In this document: piece after piece, positions 476 through 63,683 of the stretch
Layout: each line of letters begins with the position of its first letter
How positions within the stretch are numbered: position 1 is the first letter of the stretch
From: Bacteroidales bacterium
GTDB taxonomy: Bacteria; Bacteroidota; Bacteroidia; Bacteroidales; JBGRPZ01
Length of the DNA stretch: 64,000 nt
Reading direction: 5' to 3'
NCBI GenBank assembly: GCA_041725955.1
Contig: JBGRQE010000010.1
Coordinates: forward strand, 2,376 to 66,375
The notes under the pieces: model-generated
What the model saw: the letters and a program-made list of their open reading frames with translations, nothing else
What the model was told of the DNA's origin: nothing
Database searches by the model: none
Made by a program: the position numbers and the translations under genes

Positions 476-727
476 TTAAATTCCATTTTTTTTTCAGAGC
501 TGGCGAAATTAATAAAATGTTTGTAATTCAGTAGGATATGAGGAGTGAAAAAGTGGTTGCTATGGCTAGGTAAACTTAAATCCATTCATTTTCAGTTGCA
601 AGTATAGAATATTATGCACATATTTGTACTGTACTATTTAGGTAGTACACTATAACTCTAACTTAATTAGAGTTGGTTTGATTTTGAAGTGTAAAAATAA
701 GAGTTGTTTTAAAATAGATTATAACAG

Positions 728-1579
728 ATGAACTATCTACAAGTATTTAACCCTAGGCGTTTTGCTCTTCTTGCGAGACGAGAGATACTTTTTAATTGGA
801 AGAAACTTATTCTTGATTATTTGAGTATTATAGTGCTTATCGCATTTTTTTGTTCTACAGCGATTAATTTTTTATATACCTCTCCTGAGGTGTATTATCT
901 GAATCAAGCGGGAGAATCGATGCTTAAGCCTCATGTTTATAAGGATTTTTCAAGAATAGCTATTATATTGTATTTGATATTTATTGTAATACATGTAGGA
1001 TGGGCATTTCCTGATTTTCGATCAAAGGAGAGAACTCAGAACTTTATTTTGTTGCCAAACTCAGTATTTGAGAAATGGGTTTTTGAATTTATATTACGAA
1101 TTGTAGTCTTTAGTATTCTATATGTGTTTCTGCTTACTATTGGAATGAATATTGGGCAGTATGTTTATTCAATTTTTGCTAGCCAAGAAGTAACTTTCCT
1201 GAATTTTTGGTTTCCCTTTGAAGCGCTGTCATATTCATTTAGTATTGATGTATATGGAGAGCCTAATATATATATACTGTCTTTGGTTGCAGGAATTGCT
1301 CTTTCAAGTATTATGTTGACAGGAGCATCTTTCTTTCAAAAATACCCAATAATAAAGAGTGTTGCTTCTATATATATATTTCAAACTGTTTTAGGCCTAG
1401 CTACAGTACTTATCGGATTGTTATTCTATAGTAGATTTGACCACTTAATGCGTAATCTTGGTGCAGATATAACTTGGGAAGCTATAGGAATCAAATGGAT
1501 TGTATATGGTTTTCTCATTTTCACCTTTATTGTATTTCATACAGCTACTTATTTTCAGCTTAAAGAGAAAAGCTGTTAA
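728..1579 (+). CDS. ABC transporter permease-like membrane protein (copy 1)
   Basis: About 6 hydrophobic segments. Motifs FPDFRSK...LLPNSVFEK and C-terminal YFQLKEK are shared with 3148..3966. Lies in an operon with an ABC ATPase and GntR. Confidence 0.7.
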   Translation: MNYLQVFNPRRFALLARREILFNWKKLILDYLSIIVLIAFFCSTAINFLYTSPEVYYLNQAGESMLKPHVYKDFSRIAIILYLIFIVIHVGWAFPDFRSKERTQNFILLPNSVFEKWVFEFILRIVVFSILYVFLLTIGMNIGQYVYSIFASQEVTFLNFWFPFEALSYSFSIDVYGEPNIYILSLVAGIALSSIMLTGASFFQKYPIIKSVASIYIFQTVLGLATVLIGLLFYSRFDHLMRNLGADITWEAIGIKWIVYGFLIFTFIVFHTATYFQLKEKSC

Positions 1580-1621
1580 TCATGCGTAATATTTGATTTT
1601 GACTTAGTAAATTATTGGATT

Positions 1622-2299
1622 ATGAAAAAAGCTTTTTGGATTATTATAGGATATACAGGATTGGTTTTTATCTCGACTATCATACTTGTATTTTCATTTA
1701 TATTTTATGATTTCAACGAACAGGAAGTAGTCAAGACGAAAGTCTTAAAAGAATTATTACAAGATGATTTTCGGGTTGTTTATCTTGAAAATGGTCAGAT
1801 ATTAATTCAACCGGCAAAAGAAAGAATGATTGCTGAGGTAGAGTATAAAAAAGGAGAGGAAATTCCAGAATTAATTAGCAAAAGAAAGGAAGACACTCTA
1901 TTTATTAAGTTGCAAGGTTCTGGAGACGCTTTAAAAACAAAGGTGAAAATTTCTTTGTTATTTAACGATTCTATAAACATCGTTGCCAAGAATAATGTAT
2001 TGAGGCTTAATGATATCAAAGCCGCAAAGTGTCATATAAAAGGAAAAAAAAGTACAATCAATTTCTTTACAAGTTGTAAGTTAAAGCATATTGATGTATT
2101 TGCTCAAGATTCTAGGATAAGATGTCAAATTTATGGATTGGAAAGAGTAAATTCTACATTGGATTCTTCTACTTTAAGGCTTACTTATCCTATTGCCTAT
2201 TTACAAGGGAATATTAAAAATCACAGTTATTTTTCTGGAAGATCGGAACGTTTTAATTTCCAGAAAGATACCAGTTCTCAAATTTTTATTAGAAACTAG
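1622..2299 (+). CDS. Membrane-anchored hypothetical protein, DUF2807/GIN (beta-helix adhesin-like) type
   Basis: N-terminal TM helix followed by repeated short beta-strand-like segments. This type typically accompanies GntR-ABC operons in Bacteroidota. Confidence 0.5.
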   Translation: MKKAFWIIIGYTGLVFISTIILVFSFIFYDFNEQEVVKTKVLKELLQDDFRVVYLENGQILIQPAKERMIAEVEYKKGEEIPELISKRKEDTLFIKLQGSGDALKTKVKISLLFNDSINIVAKNNVLRLNDIKAAKCHIKGKKSTINFFTSCKLKHIDVFAQDSRIRCQIYGLERVNSTLDSSTLRLTYPIAYLQGNIKNHSYFSGRSERFNFQKDTSSQIFIRN

Positions 2300-2316
2300 A
2301 AAAAGAATATAAAGAT

Positions 2317-3144
2317 ATGATAGAAATAAAAAACTTAAGTTTTGGATATAAAAAGCAGAATCCGATTTATTCAGATTTAAATGTAGATTTAAAGAGTGGG
2401 CAGATTGTTGGTCTTTTAGGTAAAAATGGAGCAGGAAAAACTACCTTACTCAAGATAATATTAGGTTTATTGCAATCGAATGTAAAAGGAAGCATCAGTG
2501 TAATGGGGTTTGATCCAGCAAAACGAAACCCTGATATGCTGAAAGAGGTATTTATGATTTCGGAAGAAATTGATTTACCTTCTATAAAGATATCCACATA
2601 TGTAAAATCAATAGCAGGTTACTATGAACGTTTTGACCATCAGAAGTTAAATAATATTTTAGAAGAGTTTAAGCTAGAAAAAGATTTTGTGCTGACCAAA
2701 ATCTCTTATGGGCAGAAGAAAAAGTTTTTGATAGCTTTGGCTTTAGCAAGTGGTTGCAGATTATTAGTGTTAGATGAACCTACCAATGGATTGGATATAC
2801 CTTCAAAATCTTTATTCCGAAAAATAATTTCTGGAGCATTGACCGACGATCAATTGGTAATTATATCCACTCATCAAGTAAAAGATATCGAGAATATTAT
2901 TGATCATATTTTGATCTTAAATGAAGGAAAAGTATGCTTACATCAGTCCTTGCACGAGATTAGTCAAAGATTTTCTTTTTATCAGGTATCGGATCCAAGT
3001 GAAATGGAGTATTTATATAAAGAAACCATTCCAGGAGGTTATAAATTAATTACCAAATGCAATGGAGTTCCTACAGATTGGGATTTGGAGGTATTATTCA
3101 ATGCTAGCATATTCACTGAAGAATTGATGGAGGAGAAAGGCTAA
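2317..3144 (+). CDS. ABC transporter ATP-binding protein
   Basis: Walker A GKNGAGKT, signature SYGQ (variant of SGGQ), Walker B LLVLDEPT, H-loop STH. Confidence 0.95.
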   Translation: MIEIKNLSFGYKKQNPIYSDLNVDLKSGQIVGLLGKNGAGKTTLLKIILGLLQSNVKGSISVMGFDPAKRNPDMLKEVFMISEEIDLPSIKISTYVKSIAGYYERFDHQKLNNILEEFKLEKDFVLTKISYGQKKKFLIALALASGCRLLVLDEPTNGLDIPSKSLFRKIISGALTDDQLVIISTHQVKDIENIIDHILILNEGKVCLHQSLHEISQRFSFYQVSDPSEMEYLYKETIPGGYKLITKCNGVPTDWDLEVLFNASIFTEELMEEKG

Positions 3145-3147
3145 GTT

Positions 3148-3966
3148 ATGGAAATAAAGCATGTTTTTTCAATACCCAGATTCAAGCAGTTGCTGAAATG
3201 GCAATTTATGTTTAGTTGGAAACGAAATTTGATTGAATTTCTTGCAATGTTGATTTTGGTAATGGTTTGTGGGATTACAGTATATGTACCAACTACTAAA
3301 GTTCCAAAATTTCAATTTGGAAGTATGGCTATTCTCTACATTATTCTTTATAATATTATAGGCTTATTTTTTATAGGAAGTTGTTTCCCTATGTTACGAT
3401 CGAAAGTAAACAGTATGCAATTTTTAATGATGCCAGCGTCTATTTTTGAGAAGTATATTGGACAGGTATTAAGTCGTGTAATATTATTTGTATTTCTCTT
3501 CCCATTTGTTTTTTACATTGGATTGAATATGTCAGGTATACTTATCCATACTTTTTTTGGAGATTTAGCAAATTTTAGAGCTTATCCATTTCTTAGTGCT
3601 TACAGAGGATTTGTAATGTCATCAGATTTTATGGGTACAAATATTATGTTTGTAAACACATTAATTCTTCCTGTGTTTTTTGGATCGTTTGCTTTTTTTG
3701 GTAGTGTTTATTTTCAGACAAAAGCGACCATTAAAACTTTAATAAGTTTAGCTGCATTTTTTATTTCAGGAATTTTATTTGTAAAGATTCTTGGATTTAT
3801 TTTAAGTATAGATGAATATCATTTTTATGATCCAAGTCATTTTCCTGGAATTTCTAAAGATACTATTGGAGTTTATTCTGCATTTGGATTGTTCTTCTTC
3901 ATAGTTATAACCATCGGGATATTTTTTACCGCAAGTTATTTTCGCTTAAAAGAAAAGGAGGTATAG
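3148..3966 (+). CDS. ABC transporter permease-like membrane protein (copy 2)
   Basis: About 6 TM segments. FPMLRSK...MMPASIFEK and YFRLKEKEV parallel 728..1579. Confidence 0.7.
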   Translation: MEIKHVFSIPRFKQLLKWQFMFSWKRNLIEFLAMLILVMVCGITVYVPTTKVPKFQFGSMAILYIILYNIIGLFFIGSCFPMLRSKVNSMQFLMMPASIFEKYIGQVLSRVILFVFLFPFVFYIGLNMSGILIHTFFGDLANFRAYPFLSAYRGFVMSSDFMGTNIMFVNTLILPVFFGSFAFFGSVYFQTKATIKTLISLAAFFISGILFVKILGFILSIDEYHFYDPSHFPGISKDTIGVYSAFGLFFFIVITIGIFFTASYFRLKEKEV

Positions 3967-3967
3967 C

Positions 3968-4345
3968 ATGGATTTTAAAGCATCAAAAACTATATATATG
4001 CAAATTGCTGATTCAATTTGCGAAAACATTTTGAAAGGGTATTATGCTGCAGAAACAAAAATCCCTTCCGTTAGAGAGTTAGCAGCAGAAAAAGGAGTTA
4101 ATCCCAACACAATAATGCGCAGTTTTATGGATCTTCAAAGTCGAAATATAATCAAGAATCAAAGAGGAATAGGTTATTTTGTAGAACCCAAGGCTACAGA
4201 TATAATTACCCAAGAAAGGAAAGATCAGTTTTTTACAGAAGAATTCCCTGACTTATTGAATAAGTTGTCATTATTAAGGTTGACAAAAAAAGAGATTCAA
4301 AATATTATTGACCAAATAAAAAATGTAGGAAATGGAAACAAGTAA
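3968..4345 (+). CDS. GntR family transcriptional regulator (YtrA/YhcF type)
   Basis: IYMQIAD...KIPSVRELAAEKGVNPNTIMRSF...RGIGYFV winged HTH with a short C-terminal helix. Confidence 0.92.
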   Translation: MDFKASKTIYMQIADSICENILKGYYAAETKIPSVRELAAEKGVNPNTIMRSFMDLQSRNIIKNQRGIGYFVEPKATDIITQERKDQFFTEEFPDLLNKLSLLRLTKKEIQNIIDQIKNVGNGNK

Positions 4346-4991
4346 AAAATTAGTCCTTTCTTATTTTGGTGGGATCTTCTTTATTCTTTTTCTTATAGTT
4401 ATTTCTATTCGGATTTTTGGGTATTCGAATAAGGAATATAATCGAGATCTTGCAAAATTATCGGTGAAGCATTTTAGTTTAAATGATTTTTCTTATTTGA
4501 AGTGTGAAGGGATTAGTAACATTGAGGTTTACACTTCAGACTCCTCATATCTAAGAGTGAAATCATATAAAATTGGCGATACTCCAGAATTGGATTATAG
4601 CTATTGTAAGGACACATTGTGTTTGCCTTCTTTAAAAAATGTTGCAGGGAAGTCTTATGAAATTAAAGTATATGTAAATCTTAAGACGTTTAAAGGATTT
4701 ATTTCGAATGAATCGCATGTGTCTTGCTATAATATTAAATTATCGTCTTTAGAATATCATGGAACTCGTAGCGAGTTTTATTTTAATGGAGATTCTAAAC
4801 TAGATACTTTAATAGCAAAGGCCTCTAGATGTAAAATGTATTTGGGTGATAAGAATTTGAATATACAATCTTGTCAGCTAGATTTTGATAAAAGTAGATT
4901 GTGGGCCGTGGCACAACTAAAAGATATTCAAGGAATTTTAAAGAATGGTTCAATAATAAATTCTAATTGTAAAATTATAGACCCAAGTTAA
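4332..4991 (+). CDS. Membrane-anchored hypothetical protein, DUF2807/GIN-like (copy 2)
   Basis: N-terminal TM helix, then DFSYLKCEGISNIEV and beta-rich repeats. Overlaps the GntR stop, suggesting translational coupling. Confidence 0.5.
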   Translation: METSKKLVLSYFGGIFFILFLIVISIRIFGYSNKEYNRDLAKLSVKHFSLNDFSYLKCEGISNIEVYTSDSSYLRVKSYKIGDTPELDYSYCKDTLCLPSLKNVAGKSYEIKVYVNLKTFKGFISNESHVSCYNIKLSSLEYHGTRSEFYFNGDSKLDTLIAKASRCKMYLGDKNLNIQSCQLDFDKSRLWAVAQLKDIQGILKNGSIINSNCKIIDPS

Positions 4992-5007
4992 GATAAGAAA
5001 TTTAGAT

Positions 5008-5748
5008 TTACTGATTTGCTATATTAAATGCATAAGATATGTCTTCGTAATCGATATATATCTTATGTATTTTTTTTGCTATGGTTTTCTTGATTCGTAA
5101 GTTACAGCGTTTTCCTTCCTGATCAACGGCATAGTATGTAAGTATTGTTTCTTCGGGGGTGTTTTCTTTGTCGATATCATAGATAAAGTCAAAAACATCC
5201 TGATATTCTTCGTCAAATATTTTCATCTGATTTTCTGATAAATGTATGTCGAATTCAGTCGATTGCCATTCGCTCCAATCGCCCTCTCTTTGCAAAGAAA
5301 CTTGTGTTGCTCGTAATTTTTGAGGATCTTCAATCTCTATAGAATGCGTTGGTTCTACATTAAATACAAAGCTTACGTCGTCGTAGTCTATATAAATTTG
5401 GTAGTAGTTATGTTCTTTTTGGTTTCTAATTCTGATTAAAACATTTTCGCCATCTTCGTCCAGAGCATTTACAACAAGCGTTTTATCTTTATCACGATGT
5501 TTTTCTTCCACTTGTGTTAGGTAGGTATATTTGAATGGCATTATATTACCATAATGTAATAATTGACCATCACCAAAAACGAATAAATTATCAGACGGCA
5601 ACCAATCACCCCATTCTTTATTATTTTTTATTGCGACTTCAGAAGCTCTCATTTTTATAACTTCTTGTGCTGACAATAAAAATGGAAAGAGGAGGAGAAT
5701 TATAATTAAGGGCTTTGATTTCATAATATCAAAAATTGAGAAAACCAA
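5008..5748 (-). CDS. Secreted hypothetical protein with two internal ~100-aa repeats (start probably Met9 at 5724)
   Basis: Signal peptide MKSKPLIIILLLFPFLLSA. The two halves align by eye (see findings). Confidence 0.7.
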   Translation of the reverse strand: MVFSIFDIMKSKPLIIILLLFPFLLSAQEVIKMRASEVAIKNNKEWGDWLPSDNLFVFGDGQLLHYGNIMPFKYTYLTQVEEKHRDKDKTLVVNALDEDGENVLIRIRNQKEHNYYQIYIDYDDVSFVFNVEPTHSIEIEDPQKLRATQVSLQREGDWSEWQSTEFDIHLSENQMKIFDEEYQDVFDFIYDIDKENTPEETILTYYAVDQEGKRCNLRIKKTIAKKIHKIYIDYEDISYAFNIANQ

Positions 5749-5838
5749 TCAATAACGTAAGGGGGGGCTTAAATAAGAAAAACGAGAGGGGGCATATTAG
5801 GAGGTAGCCCCCATCTCGTTAAATATATAGCTATGATG

Positions 5839-7344
5839 TTAAAATCTAATTTGTAATCGAGCACGAAGAGTGTTTACCACATATTTACTGTCATTAATTA
5901 AGGCTTCTGCCATTGCATTAGACACTTTATGACCTGTATATGGATTGTTTATAAAAACTTGATAATTTAGGTCATCTGTAAACATATGGTTTTGATATTC
6001 AACAGAGAATCTTACTTTTCTTGGAATAATTTTAAAATTGATACCGGCTGTATAACTATATCCTTTATCAAAGTTATTATTTTCAAAAGGGGCATTAGAG
6101 TTAGGAAGAACATCTTTGAGATAACCAGAAGAGAAACCGGCTCCACCGCTATTTAGATAAGCGAATCTAAAGTATGGTTCCATCCAAAGGAAAACTCTAA
6201 AGCTAGTCATTGCATTGATTCCAAGACTATTTGCATCTGGAGAATTTTCTGCTCTGGAAGGAGCTCCTTCATCGTAAAAACCTCCATTTATAAACTGACC
6301 ATGTTCAGCATGACCGATAAATATTTCAGTTCCAATGCTTAACCATCCTGCTCTTGCGCTCATATAAGGGTTGAATACATATAACTCGTGGCTTTTTTGA
6401 TCACTTATAGGGAAGAATTGAATTCCTTTTGGCAGATAAGCGAAGTTTACACCAAAATTGAGTCGATAATTTTTTTTCTTATGGAGATATCCAAGTCCAC
6501 CATAGTAGTTAATTCTATTGATATTTTGTCCTTTAGGGCGCATAAAAGGGTTGAATGTTTCGTTTGCTATAGCTAAATAGTAATTCATTTTTGGAATTAG
6601 CCAATCTGCTTTACCTTCCCATTGTACGCCTGTATGTCTATTTCCAACACCAAGAGGAGTACATACATAACCACTTGGTCGACCAGCACCTTCATCCCAT
6701 AATGTAACACCATTGAAATAATTTGTTGCAATAGATCTTTCAACAGTAGTTAAGTAAAATGGATGCGTAGTTTCTTCTAGGCCAAATTTTACTTTTTTAT
6801 AACCCACACTCAATATACCTTTCAGCCAGCCAAAATGTAGCTTTTTCTGGATATAGGCATAATCAAGATAATCTCTTCGGTTTCCATATTCAGTATTGAT
6901 ATTGCTAAGATCTAGGGCAACACCTATATGAGCCGACCATCTTTTTTTGAAATATGCATCTGCACCCAAGCGTGCTCTCCTTATTTGGAAACCTGCATAA
7001 TCTTTAGGGGCAACAGGCGCTCCGAGATAATTATATTCGTTAGTGAGATTTGGATCTTCTTTTGTAATTAAATTTCTATGATCTTTAGCAGTACTAAAAT
7101 CATATTGAGCATCAACCTGACCTCTTACTCTTACTTTAGTTTTTCTATGGTGTTTTTTATGGTTGTCTTCAGTTATAATTAGTACATCTTGTGGTAAATA
7201 GTTTGATGCTGGTTCTTCAGAAACAACAATAAAACCTTCTTGAACAGGAGTTGCTTTTTCATTTATCTCGTTTTCCACTTGCGAATACGAGGTACTTCCT
7301 ATAAATAATAGGAATAGCAGTATTAGTATGTTTTTGTTTTTCAT
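5839..7344 (-). CDS. Outer-membrane porin, phosphate-selective OprO/OprP-like
   Basis: Signal peptide, GFQIRRARLG motif, amphipathic beta strands, C-terminal RARLQIRF ending in Phe (BAM signal). Confidence 0.7.
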   Translation of the reverse strand: MKNKNILILLFLLFIGSTSYSQVENEINEKATPVQEGFIVVSEEPASNYLPQDVLIITEDNHKKHHRKTKVRVRGQVDAQYDFSTAKDHRNLITKEDPNLTNEYNYLGAPVAPKDYAGFQIRRARLGADAYFKKRWSAHIGVALDLSNINTEYGNRRDYLDYAYIQKKLHFGWLKGILSVGYKKVKFGLEETTHPFYLTTVERSIATNYFNGVTLWDEGAGRPSGYVCTPLGVGNRHTGVQWEGKADWLIPKMNYYLAIANETFNPFMRPKGQNINRINYYGGLGYLHKKKNYRLNFGVNFAYLPKGIQFFPISDQKSHELYVFNPYMSARAGWLSIGTEIFIGHAEHGQFINGGFYDEGAPSRAENSPDANSLGINAMTSFRVFLWMEPYFRFAYLNSGGAGFSSGYLKDVLPNSNAPFENNNFDKGYSYTAGINFKIIPRKVRFSVEYQNHMFTDDLNYQVFINNPYTGHKVSNAMAEALINDSKYVVNTLRARLQIRF

Positions 7345-59506: not shown

Positions 59507-59836
59507 AGTTGATTAATAAAATGGTAAACTTTTAAAGGCACGAAAGTACAAGGAAATTGGCAGAAATCCTAAAGTTGGAAATTGGCTGATAAACAATCTG
59601 TTTTATACTTTTAAGGACTTGATTCATGGGTTTTGTAGTTCATGAAATAGGTATCTATTACTAGGAAATTATCTCTTTTGAATCCCTTTTTTCTATAGGG
59701 GTATATGTGTTTAGATTATTCTTTTTTATACTTTAGTGCTCTTGTTTAAATAATCATCTTTCCAAAAGGGATTAAAAACTAATTTGATAGTAGCGACGAA
59801 TAATCATTCTTTTTTCAGGTTTAGTGAAAGTATATT

Positions 59837-59863
59837 ATTTGAGTTGATTTGCTAAACTCAAAT
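59837..59863. promoter_or_regulatory. Inverted repeat upstream of the precursor gene
   Basis: atttgagtt-N9-aactcaaat, a perfect 9-bp inverted repeat ending 38 nt before the ATG. Confidence 0.4.
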
Positions 59864-59901
59864 GTTTTTAAGCAACTTCCCTTTTTTTAAAAGTTTATCA
59901 A

Positions 59902-60084
59902 ATGAAAAAGCAAAACTCTATTACAAGGTCTCAAAACATTTCTGAAAGATTAAAGCAGTTAAAACGAAATTATAAAAAACCAGAGTTGGTGGAATTTAAT
60001 TTGCAGAATGCCCTGCAAGATCAATGTTCTGATATGGCTTCCTGCTGGAAAGAAGAAGAGAAAAAGACTATGATTTGGTTTTAG
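59902..60084 (+). CDS. Putative RiPP precursor peptide (60 aa)
   Basis: Located 3 nt upstream of an rSAM gene. Y24-K-K-P27-E-L29 matches YxxPxL. C-terminal QCSDMASCWKEEEKKTMIWF. Confidence 0.8.
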   Translation: MKKQNSITRSQNISERLKQLKRNYKKPELVEFNLQNALQDQCSDMASCWKEEEKKTMIWF

Positions 60085-60087
60085 ACA

Positions 60088-61539
60088 ATGAAATCAAGGC
60101 AAGCATTTAATTTAGAATTCGATATAGTAGGGCATTGTAATTTACAATGCTCTTACTGTTATTTGAATATGGGAGAGGAACAAGATTTGGATGAATCTAG
60201 TTTCTTGACTGAAGAGCGTTTTGATACTTTTTACAATACCTTTTTTAAAGATGTTGATCAGGAAGTAGATCTGAATGTTTCATTTTGGGGTGGAGAGCCT
60301 TTAATGAATTTCCCAATCATTGAATATATTGTTCATCGGTTAAAGGTCTCTTCAAAGGTAAATCGAACCGTATTTGTTATAATAACTAATGGAACATTAG
60401 TTACTCCCGATATTGCGAAGTTTTGTGCAAGGCATGGAGTGTTTTTGCAAGTAACTCTTGATGGAGACAGAAAAAGTCATGATATTCAGCGGAGAACTAA
60501 AAACGATAAGGGGACCTTTGATGCGATTCTTAAGAATATTGAAATTTTAAAGGAATACAAAGCCCCTTATTCTTTAAAAACTACTTTAACAGCGTTGACT
60601 CCATTACCGTCTAAAATTATTGAAGAATATGAGGCCTTAGGATTGACTCCAATAATTCAAGAAAATATGCGAGGAACATTACATCCCGGTTATGGATTTA
60701 ATTTGGTTACTCCTGTTTCTGATTTTGATAAAAGAATCTTGGAGTCCTTTAATCCAGAACTTCTTGCCGAGGATCTGTTTAATTGTTTTTTAGAGGATTC
60801 ACATTCAGATAAGCTGTATTATCACAGTAATATTTATAGTGTAATACAATTGTTTTTTTCTTCTTATCCACGGTCTTCTTGTGGAATAGGTGACAGATAT
60901 CTCACTATTAAATACGATGGGAGTATTTATCCCTGTCATCGCTTTGTTAGTAAAAAAGAATTTGTTATTGGAGATATAAAACATGGTGTTAAGTATCCTT
61001 TTGAAAAGAAAAAGAATGTTGAATGTGAAAAATGCGATTACTTTTTTTTCTGTGGAGGAACTTGTCAGCATAAAATGGCTCTATTTGGGAATGATTATAT
61101 AGATCATAAAAATTGTAGCTTTAATATTCGATTACTGGAGTTGGTTTTTGATTATTTAATCAAAGAGTTCTTTGAAAATCAAGAGTTGTTTCTTGAAAGA
61201 TATGAGAGCTTAATTCCTAGTGATAAAAAGTTTAATCTATGTCAGATTACCAAATCTACAGAATCAGATTTAGATCCTCTTTGTAAGTTAGAAATAAATA
61301 AATTGGCATCTGTATTGCAATTAGAATCAGGTGGTATTATTTATTTAAAGCAGAAGAAGTGGAATAAACATATTTTGAATCAAACAGCTATATTGATTTG
61401 GGATATGATTCCAGTTTATAAAACCCCTCAGCGAATAGCTCAAGAAATATCTCAATCGTGCGATTTGCTTTATAGTGATGTTTTTAAGGATGTCTCTTGT
61501 CAATTAAATAGTTTTAAGGAATCTGGTTTTCTGAATTAA
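60088..61539 (+). CDS. Radical SAM/SPASM peptide maturase with a C-terminal PqqD/RRE-like domain
   Basis: C17-x3-C21-x2-C24, WGGEPLMN, TLDG. SPASM: SCGIG...GSIYPC...CEKCDYFFFCGGTC...KNC (7 Cys). C-terminal LNQTAILIWDMI...IAQEIS...DV..QLNSFKESGFL. Confidence 0.9.
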   Translation: MKSRQAFNLEFDIVGHCNLQCSYCYLNMGEEQDLDESSFLTEERFDTFYNTFFKDVDQEVDLNVSFWGGEPLMNFPIIEYIVHRLKVSSKVNRTVFVIITNGTLVTPDIAKFCARHGVFLQVTLDGDRKSHDIQRRTKNDKGTFDAILKNIEILKEYKAPYSLKTTLTALTPLPSKIIEEYEALGLTPIIQENMRGTLHPGYGFNLVTPVSDFDKRILESFNPELLAEDLFNCFLEDSHSDKLYYHSNIYSVIQLFFSSYPRSSCGIGDRYLTIKYDGSIYPCHRFVSKKEFVIGDIKHGVKYPFEKKKNVECEKCDYFFFCGGTCQHKMALFGNDYIDHKNCSFNIRLLELVFDYLIKEFFENQELFLERYESLIPSDKKFNLCQITKSTESDLDPLCKLEINKLASVLQLESGGIIYLKQKKWNKHILNQTAILIWDMIPVYKTPQRIAQEISQSCDLLYSDVFKDVSCQLNSFKESGFLN

Positions 61540-61824
61540 GTGTTTATAGAAATGGGAATAGAAAAAGTTAAATTATGTCGTCTATCTTCTGTCAAGATGG
61601 TTGAGTTGGATGATGAAATTATCTTGAGTCATCAGGAAAAGAATTATGTGTTAAACGCATCAGGAGTGGAAATATGGGAAATGCTTAAACAGCCCATAAC
61701 AACAAAGGAGATTATAGAAAGAGTTGCTGAAACTTATAATGTTCAATTATCTTTAATTGAGAGTGATGTCATTGAACTTTTGGAAAGTTTTGTAATTAAA
61801 GGATTAATTGAAAAGCAAGCATGA
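61540..61824 (+). CDS. PqqD family RiPP recognition element (stand-alone)
   Basis: VELDDEIIL...YVLNASGVEIWEML...IIERVAETYNV...DVIELLESFVIKGLI. Confidence 0.9.
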   Translation: MFIEMGIEKVKLCRLSSVKMVELDDEIILSHQEKNYVLNASGVEIWEMLKQPITTKEIIERVAETYNVQLSLIESDVIELLESFVIKGLIEKQA

Positions 61825-62657
61825 CTATATGTAGTTATTATTCAATTTGTGGAACACCAATTAAGTTGCAAAGTCCATTACAAGAAATTAATACTTTTTG
61901 CGATTTTATGCTGTATGCTTTTAAAGAAGAAAATTTATCTGAAAGTGAGTGTACCCTTGTTTCTGTAGAAAGAAATTTATATTACTCAGACTATTATGAC
62001 ATTTATAAAAACGGTCAAATAGCTTTTGATTTTGGAATGAAGATGAAGGGAGTACATTATTCTGTTATGTCAAAAGCATTGGAAAATATAGTGTCAGGAC
62101 ATGCAATTAACCAAATAGATAAAAAGGAATTAATCTCCTTGCATTCTGGTGCAATATCTAAAAATAATAAGGGTATATTAATTCTTGGAGAAAGTGGAGA
62201 TGGAAAATCTACTTTCACTCTTGAAATGGTAGCTCAGCATAACTATGAGTATTTGTCTGATGAGATTGGTTTACTTGACAAGGAGTTATTTTTACATCCT
62301 TTTATAAAAACAGTTTCTTTTAAACCAGGTATTGTAAAGTTGAATGATTCATGGATTTGTAAACGGTTTGCAAATGAGTTTCAGGTAAAAGTACCAGAAA
62401 AATTATACGGACAAAAAGTTCCTTTGAAAGCTATATTTACTGTTAAATATAATCCGGATAATCAGACCTCAATTCAACCAATGCAAAAAAAAGACATGTT
62501 AAAACGCTTGTTTAATGCACAAATAGGACGGGAAAGATATATTGCTGAGGTAGGCCAAATTGCAGATATTGTTAAAAGAGTGCCTGTTTATAGGATTGAA
62601 CATAATTCAGCTTCAGAAGCAGCTAAAGCAGTCGACAATCTTTTGTTTGGAATTTAA
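61821..62657 (+). CDS. HPr kinase-like P-loop kinase
   Basis: LHSGAI...GILILGESGDGKST...YLSDE. 4-nt ATGA overlap with pqqD. Confidence 0.8.
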   Translation: MTICSYYSICGTPIKLQSPLQEINTFCDFMLYAFKEENLSESECTLVSVERNLYYSDYYDIYKNGQIAFDFGMKMKGVHYSVMSKALENIVSGHAINQIDKKELISLHSGAISKNNKGILILGESGDGKSTFTLEMVAQHNYEYLSDEIGLLDKELFLHPFIKTVSFKPGIVKLNDSWICKRFANEFQVKVPEKLYGQKVPLKAIFTVKYNPDNQTSIQPMQKKDMLKRLFNAQIGRERYIAEVGQIADIVKRVPVYRIEHNSASEAAKAVDNLLFGI

Positions 62658-62738: not shown

Positions 62739-63683
62739 TTGCTTTATATGCAAGTTGAAGATTTTTTATCCTTTCAATTATTTTATTCTGAATTTTTAAG
62801 ATCTCCTTTAACTTTCTCCAAAATTTTGTTTACCGACGGGAGTATTAAGTATATGCCCTTTGTGAAAAGATTGGATGCTTACATAAGTTTGCCTTTTGTT
62901 TCATATACTGGTGTTTTAGATCGGGTTTCAAATCGTTTTTTACGAGGGCCAGATTTCGTTGAACAAAACGGAAACTTAATTTGTGAAGACCCAAAGATTA
63001 TATGGGAAATTAGAGGGTTTCGCTCTTATTCTAATCATATTTTAGATGCAAAGGTTTTGCAGGTCATTAATCTAAAGAAAAATAAAGAATGTAAAAGTTT
63101 CCAAATTGGGCAACATACAAAACGAAAAATTAAGAAAGCTCAGCAAAAACAGCAATATGTTTATATGTTGAATAATGGGCGATGTGATGTTTTTATTGAT
63201 TTGTATCAGCGGTTTTGTCTAAAAAAGGGAATACCATCTTTTTCAAGAAACTTCTTTCAGTTATTAATTGATTTTTTTCCGTCGAGAGTATCCATTTTTA
63301 TAGTTGAAAAAAATGGAGAGCCTATTGCTTCCGCGTGGCTTTTTAAGGATAAGCGTTATGCTGAGGTTACTTGGATTTGTGGTGTGGACGGATATAAAAC
63401 CCATTATTCTCATTTCTTACTGATTTATGAGATTATGCAATATTGCAAAAATGAATCTATTGATTTTCTTTCTTTAGGTCGGAGTGATTATAATAGTGGA
63501 ATTTATGGGTTTAAGAATTTGTGGAAAACTGTAAATATTCCTTTAATATTTAGTTATTCGAAACCTTGTGTTAACGTATGGAATTTAAAAGAATCTTGTT
63601 CATGGGTTATGAAGAATACAGCAAAAGTTTCGCCAACTTTGACTTTAAAAATGGGAGATTTTATTACAAAAAAAGTTTTCTAA
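62739..63683 (+). CDS. FemAB-like GNAT-fold transferase (resembles the PEP-CTERM/EPS-associated FemAB type)
   Basis: ISLPFVSYTG, EIRG, RNFFQLL, HFLLIYEIMQYC, LSLGRS..NSGIYGFKNLW. Confidence 0.72.
   Translation: MLYMQVEDFLSFQLFYSEFLRSPLTFSKILFTDGSIKYMPFVKRLDAYISLPFVSYTGVLDRVSNRFLRGPDFVEQNGNLICEDPKIIWEIRGFRSYSNHILDAKVLQVINLKKNKECKSFQIGQHTKRKIKKAQQKQQYVYMLNNGRCDVFIDLYQRFCLKKGIPSFSRNFFQLLIDFFPSRVSIFIVEKNGEPIASAWLFKDKRYAEVTWICGVDGYKTHYSHFLLIYEIMQYCKNESIDFLSLGRSDYNSGIYGFKNLWKTVNIPLIFSYSKPCVNVWNLKESCSWVMKNTAKVSPTLTLKMGDFITKKVF

Follow-up and report, generated by a model that had tools for sequence, protein, structure and literature searches.

What is made from a small peptide with a lasso-type leader when no lasso cyclase stands beside it? 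This question is raised by a stretch of 64,000 nucleotides (nt) from a Bacteroidales bacterium (assembly GCA_041725955.1, contig JBGRQE010000010.1, positions 2,376 to 66,375 of the forward strand; in the following, the window), in which a gene for a 60-residue peptide (MKKQNSITRSQNISERLKQLKRNYKKPELVEFNLQNALQDQCSDMASCWKEEEKKTMIWF; start codon ATG at 59902, stop codon TAG at 60082-60084) is directly followed by genes for a radical S-adenosylmethionine (rSAM) enzyme, a stand-alone PqqD-family protein and an HPr-kinase-like protein (Table 1). The original prediction, derived from the letters of this DNA, had seen in this open reading frame (ORF) the precursor of a peptide that is made by ribosomes and modified after translation (RiPP), which pairs the YxxPxL motif bound by the RiPP recognition element (RRE) of lasso peptide systems with a Cys-x5-Cys-Trp core. 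Re-reading gave the identical ORF, translation and position of YKKPEL (Y24-K-K-P27-E-L29, 59971-59988), and all Cys and Trp residues of the window peptide are located downstream of this motif, including C48-W49 (60043-60048) and the W59-F60 that closes the C-terminus. Placed among its homologues, the peptide belongs to an uncharacterised family that couples a leader and kinase toolkit of lasso type with an rSAM enzyme and that keeps the hexapeptide CSDMAS, not a Trp, invariant. We lean towards the answer that the peptide feeds an rSAM-plus-kinase pathway as its precursor and receives a Cys-centred crosslink.

A precursor family defined by a hexapeptide

A word-index search with the precursor peptide matched only the peptide itself. 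The route to its homologues went by way of small ORFs next to rSAM homologues, for which eight contigs were fetched; each of them carries, just 5' of the rSAM gene, a small ORF that shares the leader and CSDMAS, and nine homologous small ORFs, called or uncalled, stand directly 5' of orthologous rSAM genes in other assemblies. A profile built from 10 sequences and searched against 1.84 billion proteins subsequently gave 54 representatives of 50%-identity clusters, 32 of them at E<=1e-10, and an anchored alignment of 58 sequences was assembled, of which 52 are canonical for CSDMAS and six divergent. Since it is conserved in homologues and not read from a single sequence, the ORF is more than a chance occurrence, and it is very probably a genuine precursor of a conserved CSDMAS peptide family; the homologous ORFs 5' of orthologous rSAM genes equally support its designation as a RiPP precursor.

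The leader of the family follows the consensus G-I-K-E-x-R-L-K-x-L-K-x-N-Y-x-K-P-E-hydrophobic, with R16 present in all 58 sequences, L20 in 57, Y24 in 55 (Trp in two, Phe in one) and P27 in 55. At the place of L29, Ile (19), Leu (15), Phe (8), Val (5), Met (4) and Thr (5) occur, a hydrophobic I/L/F/V/M being found in at least 51 of the 58, so that the predicted leader motif holds in a YxxPxL-like form. In the hexapeptide, C, S and D are each kept by 51 of the 52 canonical members, M by all 52, A by 45 and the final S by 51, and the spacing from Pro to Cys is 15-16 residues in every one of them. M45 is the most conserved residue of the motif, retained also in the divergent members, and A46 the most variable of the six. 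The tails beyond, with 5 to 40 residues (median 19), 14% Cys and 14% Gly, are without positional conservation: C48 is a Cys in 16/52, W49 is found in the window peptide only (1/52), and W59 and T56 are situated in the hypervariable region. Of the residues singled out originally, C42, D44 and S47 are thus conserved and C48, W49 and W59 are not, and Cys-x5-Cys-Trp does not constitute a conserved unit.

Tail Cys residues number zero in four canonical members, one in nine and two or more in 39, and tail sub-families such as CAGLTMCYC, CCCVVIKY and CCNNGGD recur. All 58 precursors, however, possess a Cys inside the motif or no more than two residues past it. Of the six divergent members, which lack C42, four (YHDMAGC, SSSMASC, HSNMAQC and NYNMAC) carry a Cys one or two residues past M-A instead, the Asp being lost as well in three of these four (SSSMAS, HSNMAQ, NYNMAC); the remaining two match the motif more poorly and have a Cys within two residues of it too. 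At one related locus, L002, two precursors are encoded in tandem (5375-5578 and 5790-5972) with near-identical leaders and CSDMAS and with unrelated tails, SPMGSCGSGDTYPGA versus CCCVVIKY; a single set of enzymes thus serves different tails.

Predicted recognition of the leader

Since precursor and rSAM enzyme share one frame in the window and at the related locus L003, their natural read-through fusions could be used as tethered-peptide constructs, artificial as they are, for AlphaFold2 predictions in alignment with rSAM homologues. In both fusions the leader is predicted with a local distance difference test score (pLDDT) above 80, though only two sequences cover it, with a helix across E-R-L-K-x-L-K and a five-residue strand extending from P+2 to P+6 in the window (residues 29-33) and from P+3 to P+7 in L003. 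A published precedent exists in the linear polyphosphorylated peptides (LPP), encoded by lppAKBSDN of Paenibacillus alginolyticus (Popov et al. 2026 Nat Commun, PMC13381572). In the LppB-LppA and PbaB1-PbaA crystals (9x8z, 9x90), the sheet of the RRE is extended by a strand formed from the residues following the Pro, and pockets take up the Tyr (or Trp), the Pro itself and the hydrophobic residue (PMC13381572). The register of the leader strand agrees with these crystals, as the predicted strand starts just past the Pro. Contact with the RRE fused to the rSAM enzyme is what we infer from secondary structure and confidence, and docking of the leader on a PqqD-type RRE is likely.

PqqD-type domains are present twice in the operon. 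The stand-alone protein has the lasso PqqD chaperone as its best NCBIfam match and, among solved structures, matches TbiB1 (5v1u) at E 9e-7, PbaB1 at 8e-4 and LppB at 0.02. The rSAM enzyme, on the other hand, begins at the barrel without an N-terminal RRE and carries the domain C-terminally in its last approximately 85 residues (about 61285-61536), which share 26% identity with the free PqqD and weakly match lasso PqqD; Pfam PqqD is recognized on most of its orthologues, and about 12 full-length homologues (28-36% identity) share the domain. The combination that marks a lasso leader, Y/W-x-x-P-x-L together with a B1-type RRE, is accordingly found in the alignment, in the match to TbiB1 and in the predicted strand. 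A lasso cyclase or B2 protein was not found in the window, and PF13471 is absent from the genome (92.6% complete), in which the cyclase was not searched for; this agrees with the original prediction that a cyclase partner is missing at the locus. A lasso-type leader without a lasso cyclase is therefore real, but it has its published precedent in the LPP family.

Proposed radical SAM chemistry at the invariant cysteine

Twelve orthologues all retain the CxxxCxxC of the rSAM enzyme (C17/C21/C24) and its seven SPASM Cys (C265, C283, C313, C316, C322, C326 and C343). Among NCBIfam models the enzyme scores best with PapB (178.4 bits), followed by the nif11 maturase (130), CcpM (120), the SCIFF maturase (119.5), QhpD (110) and anSME (94), and less with the cyclophane families YhhB (91), GrrM/OscB (63) and FxsB (58). 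Its best sequence match in the PDB is CteB (5wgg), with anSME second both by sequence and by fold. With its seven Cys the SPASM region resembles that of CteB, where auxiliary cluster I leaves one iron open to bind a substrate Cys, whereas anSME carries eight. The thioethers made by PapB link Cys to Asp or Glu, and spacings Cys-Xn-Asp with n from 0 to 6 are tolerated (PMC9413430).

As Cys is the sole reactive residue common to 58/58 precursors, a Cys-centred reaction is the only chemistry that fits the whole family, and C42 is the only universal thiol of the canonical members, as four of their tails are without Cys. Because C42, S43, D44 and S47 are each conserved in 51/52, a thioether combined with a Ser kinase site is reasonable, and the Cys/Asp thioether proposed originally stands as a candidate. 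Based on the sequences, formation of a Cys-based thioether by the rSAM enzyme is somewhat probable, and the specific pairing of C42 with D44 is rather doubtful, if still worth attention; pairing with Asp or Glu is supported by a relative, at locus L022, in which an rSAM enzyme with C-terminal PqqD is located beside an ORF with Cys-Asp/Glu repeats.

In the proposed mechanism, the leader would dock as a beta-strand on the PqqD-type domain, either at the C-terminus of the rSAM enzyme or as free protein, and would thereby hold CSDMAS at the enzyme active sites. A PapB/CteB-like rSAM/SPASM enzyme would then make a thioether with the sulfur of the invariant C42, D44 being the likeliest acceptor to give a Cys-X1-Asp ring, and further links might form to tail Cys in those members that have them. 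The hexapeptide would act as a hub for rSAM reaction, Ser phosphorylation and leader cleavage.

Proposed phosphorylation and leader cleavage

In LPP biosynthesis, LppK adds several phosphates to the core Ser3, the phospho-Ser being located three residues past the cut, and the SpI-like LppS depends on the RRE as well as on F-3, E-2 and T-1 of the leader and cuts the unphosphorylated precursor poorly (PMC13381572). The conserved LPP motif ends at the phospho-Ser, YxxPxVLxHQxIxFET/xxS with the slash at the cut (PMC13381572). By analogy, CSDMAS probably spans the cleavage and phosphorylation sites. The HprK-like kinase would phosphorylate S47 or S43, a modification at one of these two residues having just short of an even chance; among the sites suggested originally, S43 and S47 remain reasonable, each being conserved in 51/52, and T56, in the hypervariable tail, does not. 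A signal-peptidase-like leader peptidase would cut within or just past CSDMAS. Two registers can be envisaged, C-S-D/M-A-S with S47 as the +3 serine, and cleavage directly after M-A-S, which with a hydrophobic residue at -3 and a small hydroxyl residue at -1 would resemble F-E-T.

Candidates for the peptidase are encoded in the related clusters. These are composed of an rSAM-RRE fusion with its one or two precursors, a kinase of HprK/ScmC type, a peptidase of about 180 residues of S24/S26 type, a PF14907 (NTP_transf_5) nucleotidyltransferase (138 bits in L002) and often an ATP-binding cassette (ABC) transporter; the kinase of L002 is 51% identical to that of the window. The peptidases weakly match S24 and archaeal-type signal peptidase I, and their profile matches human SEC11A. 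Their alignment has an invariant G-x-C-M-x-P in which Cys replaces the nucleophile Ser, with the His (HRF) and Asp kept, and they may represent a Cys-His variant of the signal-peptidase fold that serves as leader peptidase.

The window cluster has no nucleotidyltransferase, peptidase or transporter in cis, and the free PqqD and a FemAB-like gene are found instead. The genome possesses one Cys-type peptidase, on contig C31, 45% identical to that of L002 and adjoining a Wzx-like flippase and a WecA-like gene, and one PF14907 gene, at the edge of contig C6 (1-1281; 165.7 bits, 35% identity to that of L002). The neighbours of the latter are lost in an assembly gap, and its true distance to the peptide operon might be smaller. 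Precursor, kinase and free PqqD occur only once each in the genome. As these single-copy genes leave no other peptide partner, the peptidase of contig C31 and the nucleotidyltransferase of contig C6 most likely act in trans on the precursor, as the proposed pathway would have it.

Weighing the alternatives

A number of observations weigh against a Cys-centred crosslink combined with phosphorylation in CSDMAS. The rSAM enzyme stays below every curated cut-off (PapB 178.4 versus 340 bits, SCIFF 119.5 versus 425), and by fold anSME and ChlB, a cyclophane synthase (PMC12912966), score as well as CteB, so that the fold does not fix the chemistry. AlphaFold2 gives a pLDDT below 50 across CSDMAS and the tail. 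Cleavage past D44 or S47 would discard C42 and D44 with the leader, and the ring would be absent from the product. The precursor of locus L004 (YHDMAG) is without both motif serines, yet its kinase is intact, and S43 or S47 can therefore not be the sole kinase target. Equally, the peptidase and the nucleotidyltransferase are unlinked and located near polysaccharide genes and may serve another process, and no RNA run holds the locus. Loss of the kinase in L004 had been considered and was rejected (intact, 268 residues, GESGDGKS).

The most serious competitor, somewhat unlikely as we see it, regards CSDMAS as the end of the leader, required for recognition and cleavage, and lets the rSAM enzyme crosslink Cys of the tail, here C48 to one of E51-E53 or T56 and in other members the numerous tail Cys, with C42 and D44 discarded, in the manner of promiscuous maturases whose substrates carry hypervariable cores after a conserved leader. 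Conservation indeed stops abruptly past S47, and the tails contain 14% Cys, with two or more Cys in 39/52; their recurrent sub-families suggest that the tail is the selected product; and the conserved LPP motif equally spans the cleavage site, its peptidase needing positions -3 to -1, for which M-A-S resembles F-E-T and where the variable A46 is as expected at -2. On the other hand, the four tails without Cys and the nine with a single one would leave the rSAM enzyme without a thiol or without a partner, an invariant Cys and Asp are unusual in a leader, and where a divergent member has lost C42, D44 is mostly gone too and a Cys always appears right behind M-A-x, which looks like a relocated reactive Cys and less like a mere recognition residue. 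A different rSAM reaction within the motif, such as anSME-like conversion of C42 to formylglycine, a Cys-to-alpha-carbon sactionine or a modification of M45, is quite improbable: anSME as second-best match, the exceptional conservation of M45 and scores below the cut-off of every thioether model speak in its favour, but thioether maturases outscore anSME (PapB 178, nif11 130, CcpM 120 and SCIFF 119 versus 94 bits), C and D are co-conserved, and the relative at L022 pairs with a Cys-Asp/Glu repeat precursor.

The three-residue, triceptide-like Trp cyclophane W49-K-E, which had been put forward originally, is the least credible of the alternatives and does not define the chemistry of the family, even if ChlB is a top fold match, cyclophane families are among the weaker profile matches (YhhB 91, GrrM/OscB 63 and FxsB 58 bits) and the window peptide does contain W49-K50-E51. 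A Trp at this position occurs in 1/52 and anywhere in the tail in only 18/52, and some tails, for example P0131, P0158 and P0159, have no aromatic residue at all; as the enzymes are orthologous and Trp is mostly absent, the shared chemistry cannot depend on it. Very improbable, finally, is a decaying or silent remnant, horizontally acquired, which has lost peptidase, nucleotidyltransferase and exporter and no longer makes the peptide. The lack of these genes in cis, the missing RNA and the absence of the locus from 40 relatives, from 400 genomes of the phylum and from the syntenic site in a genome of the same genus would be compatible with such a fate, but none of the five ORFs is broken and their junctions are tight or overlap, every catalytic motif is retained, and the partners occur once each elsewhere in the genome, 35-45% identical to their counterparts in the clusters and so about as close as the rSAM enzyme is.

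Relation to known peptide systems

With LPP, the Cys-centred rSAM-plus-kinase pathway favoured here shares a Y-x-x-P-x-hydrophobic leader recognized by an RRE of PqqD type, a kinase resembling HprK, a peptidase of the archaeal type (SipW/SEC11-like), PF14907, an ABC exporter (here in relatives; none was found in the 64-kb window), a conserved N-terminal part that ends at a Ser near the cleavage site in front of a hypervariable C-terminus, and polysaccharide genes nearby. Of the LPP gene set, RRE and kinase are found in the operon and peptidase and PF14907 unlinked on contigs C31 and C6, whereas relatives have all of them in cis. In contrast to this pathway, LPP biosynthesis is without rSAM and gives a linear product, while an rSAM/SPASM gene stands next to the precursor in every cluster examined here. 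The LPP motif FETxxS is located 12-15 residues past the Pro as compared to 15-20 for CSDMAS, the LPP RRE is discrete only and not in addition fused to an rSAM C-terminus, LppS uses Ser29/His68/Asp93 where in the present peptidases a Cys takes the place of the nucleophile, and LPP have been reported from Bacillota only, whereas the host here belongs to the Bacteroidota and seems to come from coral.

The likeness to the ranthipeptide systems of PapB (freyrasin) and CteB (thermocellin) and to QhpD consists in an rSAM enzyme with a SPASM domain with seven conserved Cys, in the best profile (PapB) and PDB sequence (CteB) matches and in an invariant Cys near an Asp. However, the RRE is here C-terminal, not N-terminal, the scores are well below cut-offs, a single Cys-X1-Asp in a fixed motif stands in place of repeated Cys-X3-Asp, and kinase, nucleotidyltransferase and signal-peptidase-like protease accompany the enzyme. 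Phosphorylated lasso peptides (paeninodin with PadeK; pseudomycoidin with PsmK/PsmN, PMC6993621) have in common with this family the YxxPxL-type leader, the B1-type RRE, a PF14907 partner and a kinase of HprK type in which P-loop and acidic pair are the same; they differ by the macrolactam synthetase and B2 (PF13471), of which the former is not found in the window and the latter not in the genome, and by kinases acting on a C-terminal Ser, whereas the tails of this family do not end with Ser. The bioinformatically defined SynChlorMet system (ScmC/ScmD/ScmE/ScmF, TIGR04248-04251) likewise has rSAM/SPASM enzymes alongside a relative of PqqD and a protein of HprK type, and PF27840 (ScmC) matches kinases of relatives; but scores are far from the cut-offs (ScmE 65.1 versus 400, ScmD 17.3 versus 100, ScmC 25.7 versus 125 for the L002 kinase), there is one rSAM enzyme and not two, and the precursors belong to another family. 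Among the phosphorylated RiPPs listed in 2025, none is rSAM-modified (PMC12639078). Literature searches found no paper on CSDMAS, on SynChlorMet or on an HprK-like kinase with radical SAM, and for PF14907 only an unrelated paper on phosphonate biosynthesis.

The family thus couples an LPP/lasso toolkit with an rSAM enzyme of ranthipeptide-like kind and is set apart by its precursors, by the unusual C-terminal position of the RRE on the maturase and by the Cys-nucleophile peptidase. It provides a substrate family for uncharacterised rSAM/kinase cassettes, with 54 representatives and a six-residue motif at fixed spacing to the predicted RRE-binding site, directs attention to Y24, P27, C42, S43, D44, M45 and S47 with exclusion of the non-conserved Trp, and widens the range of the LPP toolkit beyond the Bacillota and by its fusion to radical-SAM chemistry. 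A Cys-X1-Asp thioether would, if true, be the tightest natural ranthipeptide ring and a compact leader-guided stapling tag beside a freely variable sequence, with possible use in peptide engineering. More far-reaching, and unlikely in its entirety, is a new RiPP class with an invariant head, in which a three-residue C42-D44 thioether ring adjoins a (poly)phosphorylated, possibly glycosylated or nucleotidylated Ser, a hypervariable and often Cys-knotted tail, a Cys-nucleophile leader peptidase and a role at the surface or in biofilms; in such a class, the recurrent polysaccharide-gene neighbours would argue for a cell-surface or biofilm role over an antibiotic one.

Genomic context and distribution

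Table 1. Features of the precursor locus in the window, and Cys-type signal-peptidase-like genes on contig C31 of the same genome and at related loci
Feature	Position	Strand	Description
Precursor peptide gene	59902-60084	+	60 residues and TAG stop
Conserved leader E15-R-L-K-x-L-K-x-N-Y24-x-x-P27-x-L29	59944-59988	+	Predicted RRE-binding element; alignment and AlphaFold2
Hexapeptide C42-S43-D44-M45-A46-S47	60025-60042	+	Fixed 15-16 residues past P27; alignment
Hypervariable tail C48-WKEEEKKTMIWF	60043-60081	+	Proposed variable part of product
Perfect 9-nt inverted repeat ATTTGAGTT / AACTCAAAT	59837-59863	.	9-nt spacer; 39 nt 5' of precursor start
Radical SAM/SPASM enzyme	60088-61539	+	483 residues; Pfam Radical_SAM, Fer4_12, SPASM
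Stand-alone PqqD-family RRE	61540-61824	+	94 residues; lasso-B1/LppB type; PF05402, 50 bits
HPr-kinase-like peptide kinase	61821-62657	+	278 residues; TIGR04352, 50.7 bits; LHSGA, GESGDGKS, LSDE
FemAB/GNAT-like acyltransferase	62739-63683	+	314 residues; 81 nt 3' of kinase
Cys-type signal-peptidase-like (SEC11/SipW-type) gene	C31:29569-30081	-	
Cys-type signal-peptidase-like (SEC11/SipW-type) gene	L002:8270-8818		
Cys-type signal-peptidase-like (SEC11/SipW-type) gene	L004:8246-8794		
Cys-type signal-peptidase-like (SEC11/SipW-type) gene	L005:8292-8864		
Cys-type signal-peptidase-like gene	L006:7062-7583		
Cys-type signal-peptidase-like gene	L008:3338-3886		
Cys-type signal-peptidase-like gene	L010:2842-3378		
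Cys-type signal-peptidase-like gene	L011:5211-5768		

The precursor is located at the end of a 395-nt gap (59507-59901, 5' of its start) beyond a divergent M49 peptidase gene, and its stop codon precedes the rSAM gene by 3 nt. Along precursor, rSAM, PqqD and kinase the gaps are 3, 0 and -4 nt, the kinase ORF overlapping that of PqqD by 4 nt, and the precursor, rSAM and PqqD ORFs (59902-61824) share a single reading frame, interrupted by TAG-ACA and then by one stop codon. The inverted repeat in front of the precursor may be a candidate operator or regulator site or a 5' untranslated region hairpin; a sigma-70 promoter scan was uninformative (26 matches versus 21.5 expected). All curated family models stay below their cut-offs on the proteins of the operon. 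The FemAB-like gene is absent from all related clusters, and a close homologue of its product was not found, only relatives with 24-26% identity in four genomes of the order, which leaves its membership of the peptide pathway uncertain. Beyond it, a plus-strand ORF extending from 63999 to the contig end (about 66375-67500 of contig C10) encodes a polytopic membrane protein which, judged from the translation, looks like an O-antigen ligase or Wzy, and the FemAB-like gene may belong with this ORF and not with the peptide pathway.

The rSAM enzyme is absent from 40 related genomes, and the precursor profile gave no true match in 400 genomes of the phylum. In a genome of the same genus (G001; locus L104, contig C2 around 12425), synteny of the S46 and M49 peptidase genes is kept and ends where the peptide operon begins; the operon, with the FemAB-like and the O-antigen-ligase-like genes, is a variable island. 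The GC content of 0.30-0.33 is not deviant, and DNA of the locus was found only in four coral-metagenome runs. Locus L002 has a rng-HU-mutY-ssb-gldE-like neighbourhood with an RNase G 56% identical to that of this genome, which suggests that L002 is from Bacteroidota and that part of the family at least resides in the same phylum. A scan of genome contigs with the single rSAM sequence returned only a distant Nitrospirota rSAM enzyme; a metagenome scan with the rSAM alignment, in which generic rSAM patterns were used, gave 80 loci, and among these the sole match to the precursor pattern (L071) was spurious and L022 alone was informative.

Additional cassettes are found at some of the related loci. 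Directly 3' of the CSDMAS cluster of L008, a 61-residue ORF, a free PqqD, a two-piece rSAM enzyme and a second ScmC-like kinase (3961-7087) constitute a second peptide cassette. In L006, an extra SCIFF/PapB-like rSAM enzyme (282 and 262 bits) and a 655-residue protein of unknown family are encoded 5' of the precursor (495-3913). At L022 (140-655 and 676-2175), the distant rSAM enzyme with C-terminal PqqD adjoins a 171-residue ORF with a twin-arginine-like signal and about 20 Cys-Asp/Cys-Glu repeats (CDTTCDTTCDITCETACDVCEVCEVCD...), which may be a large multi-thioether substrate.

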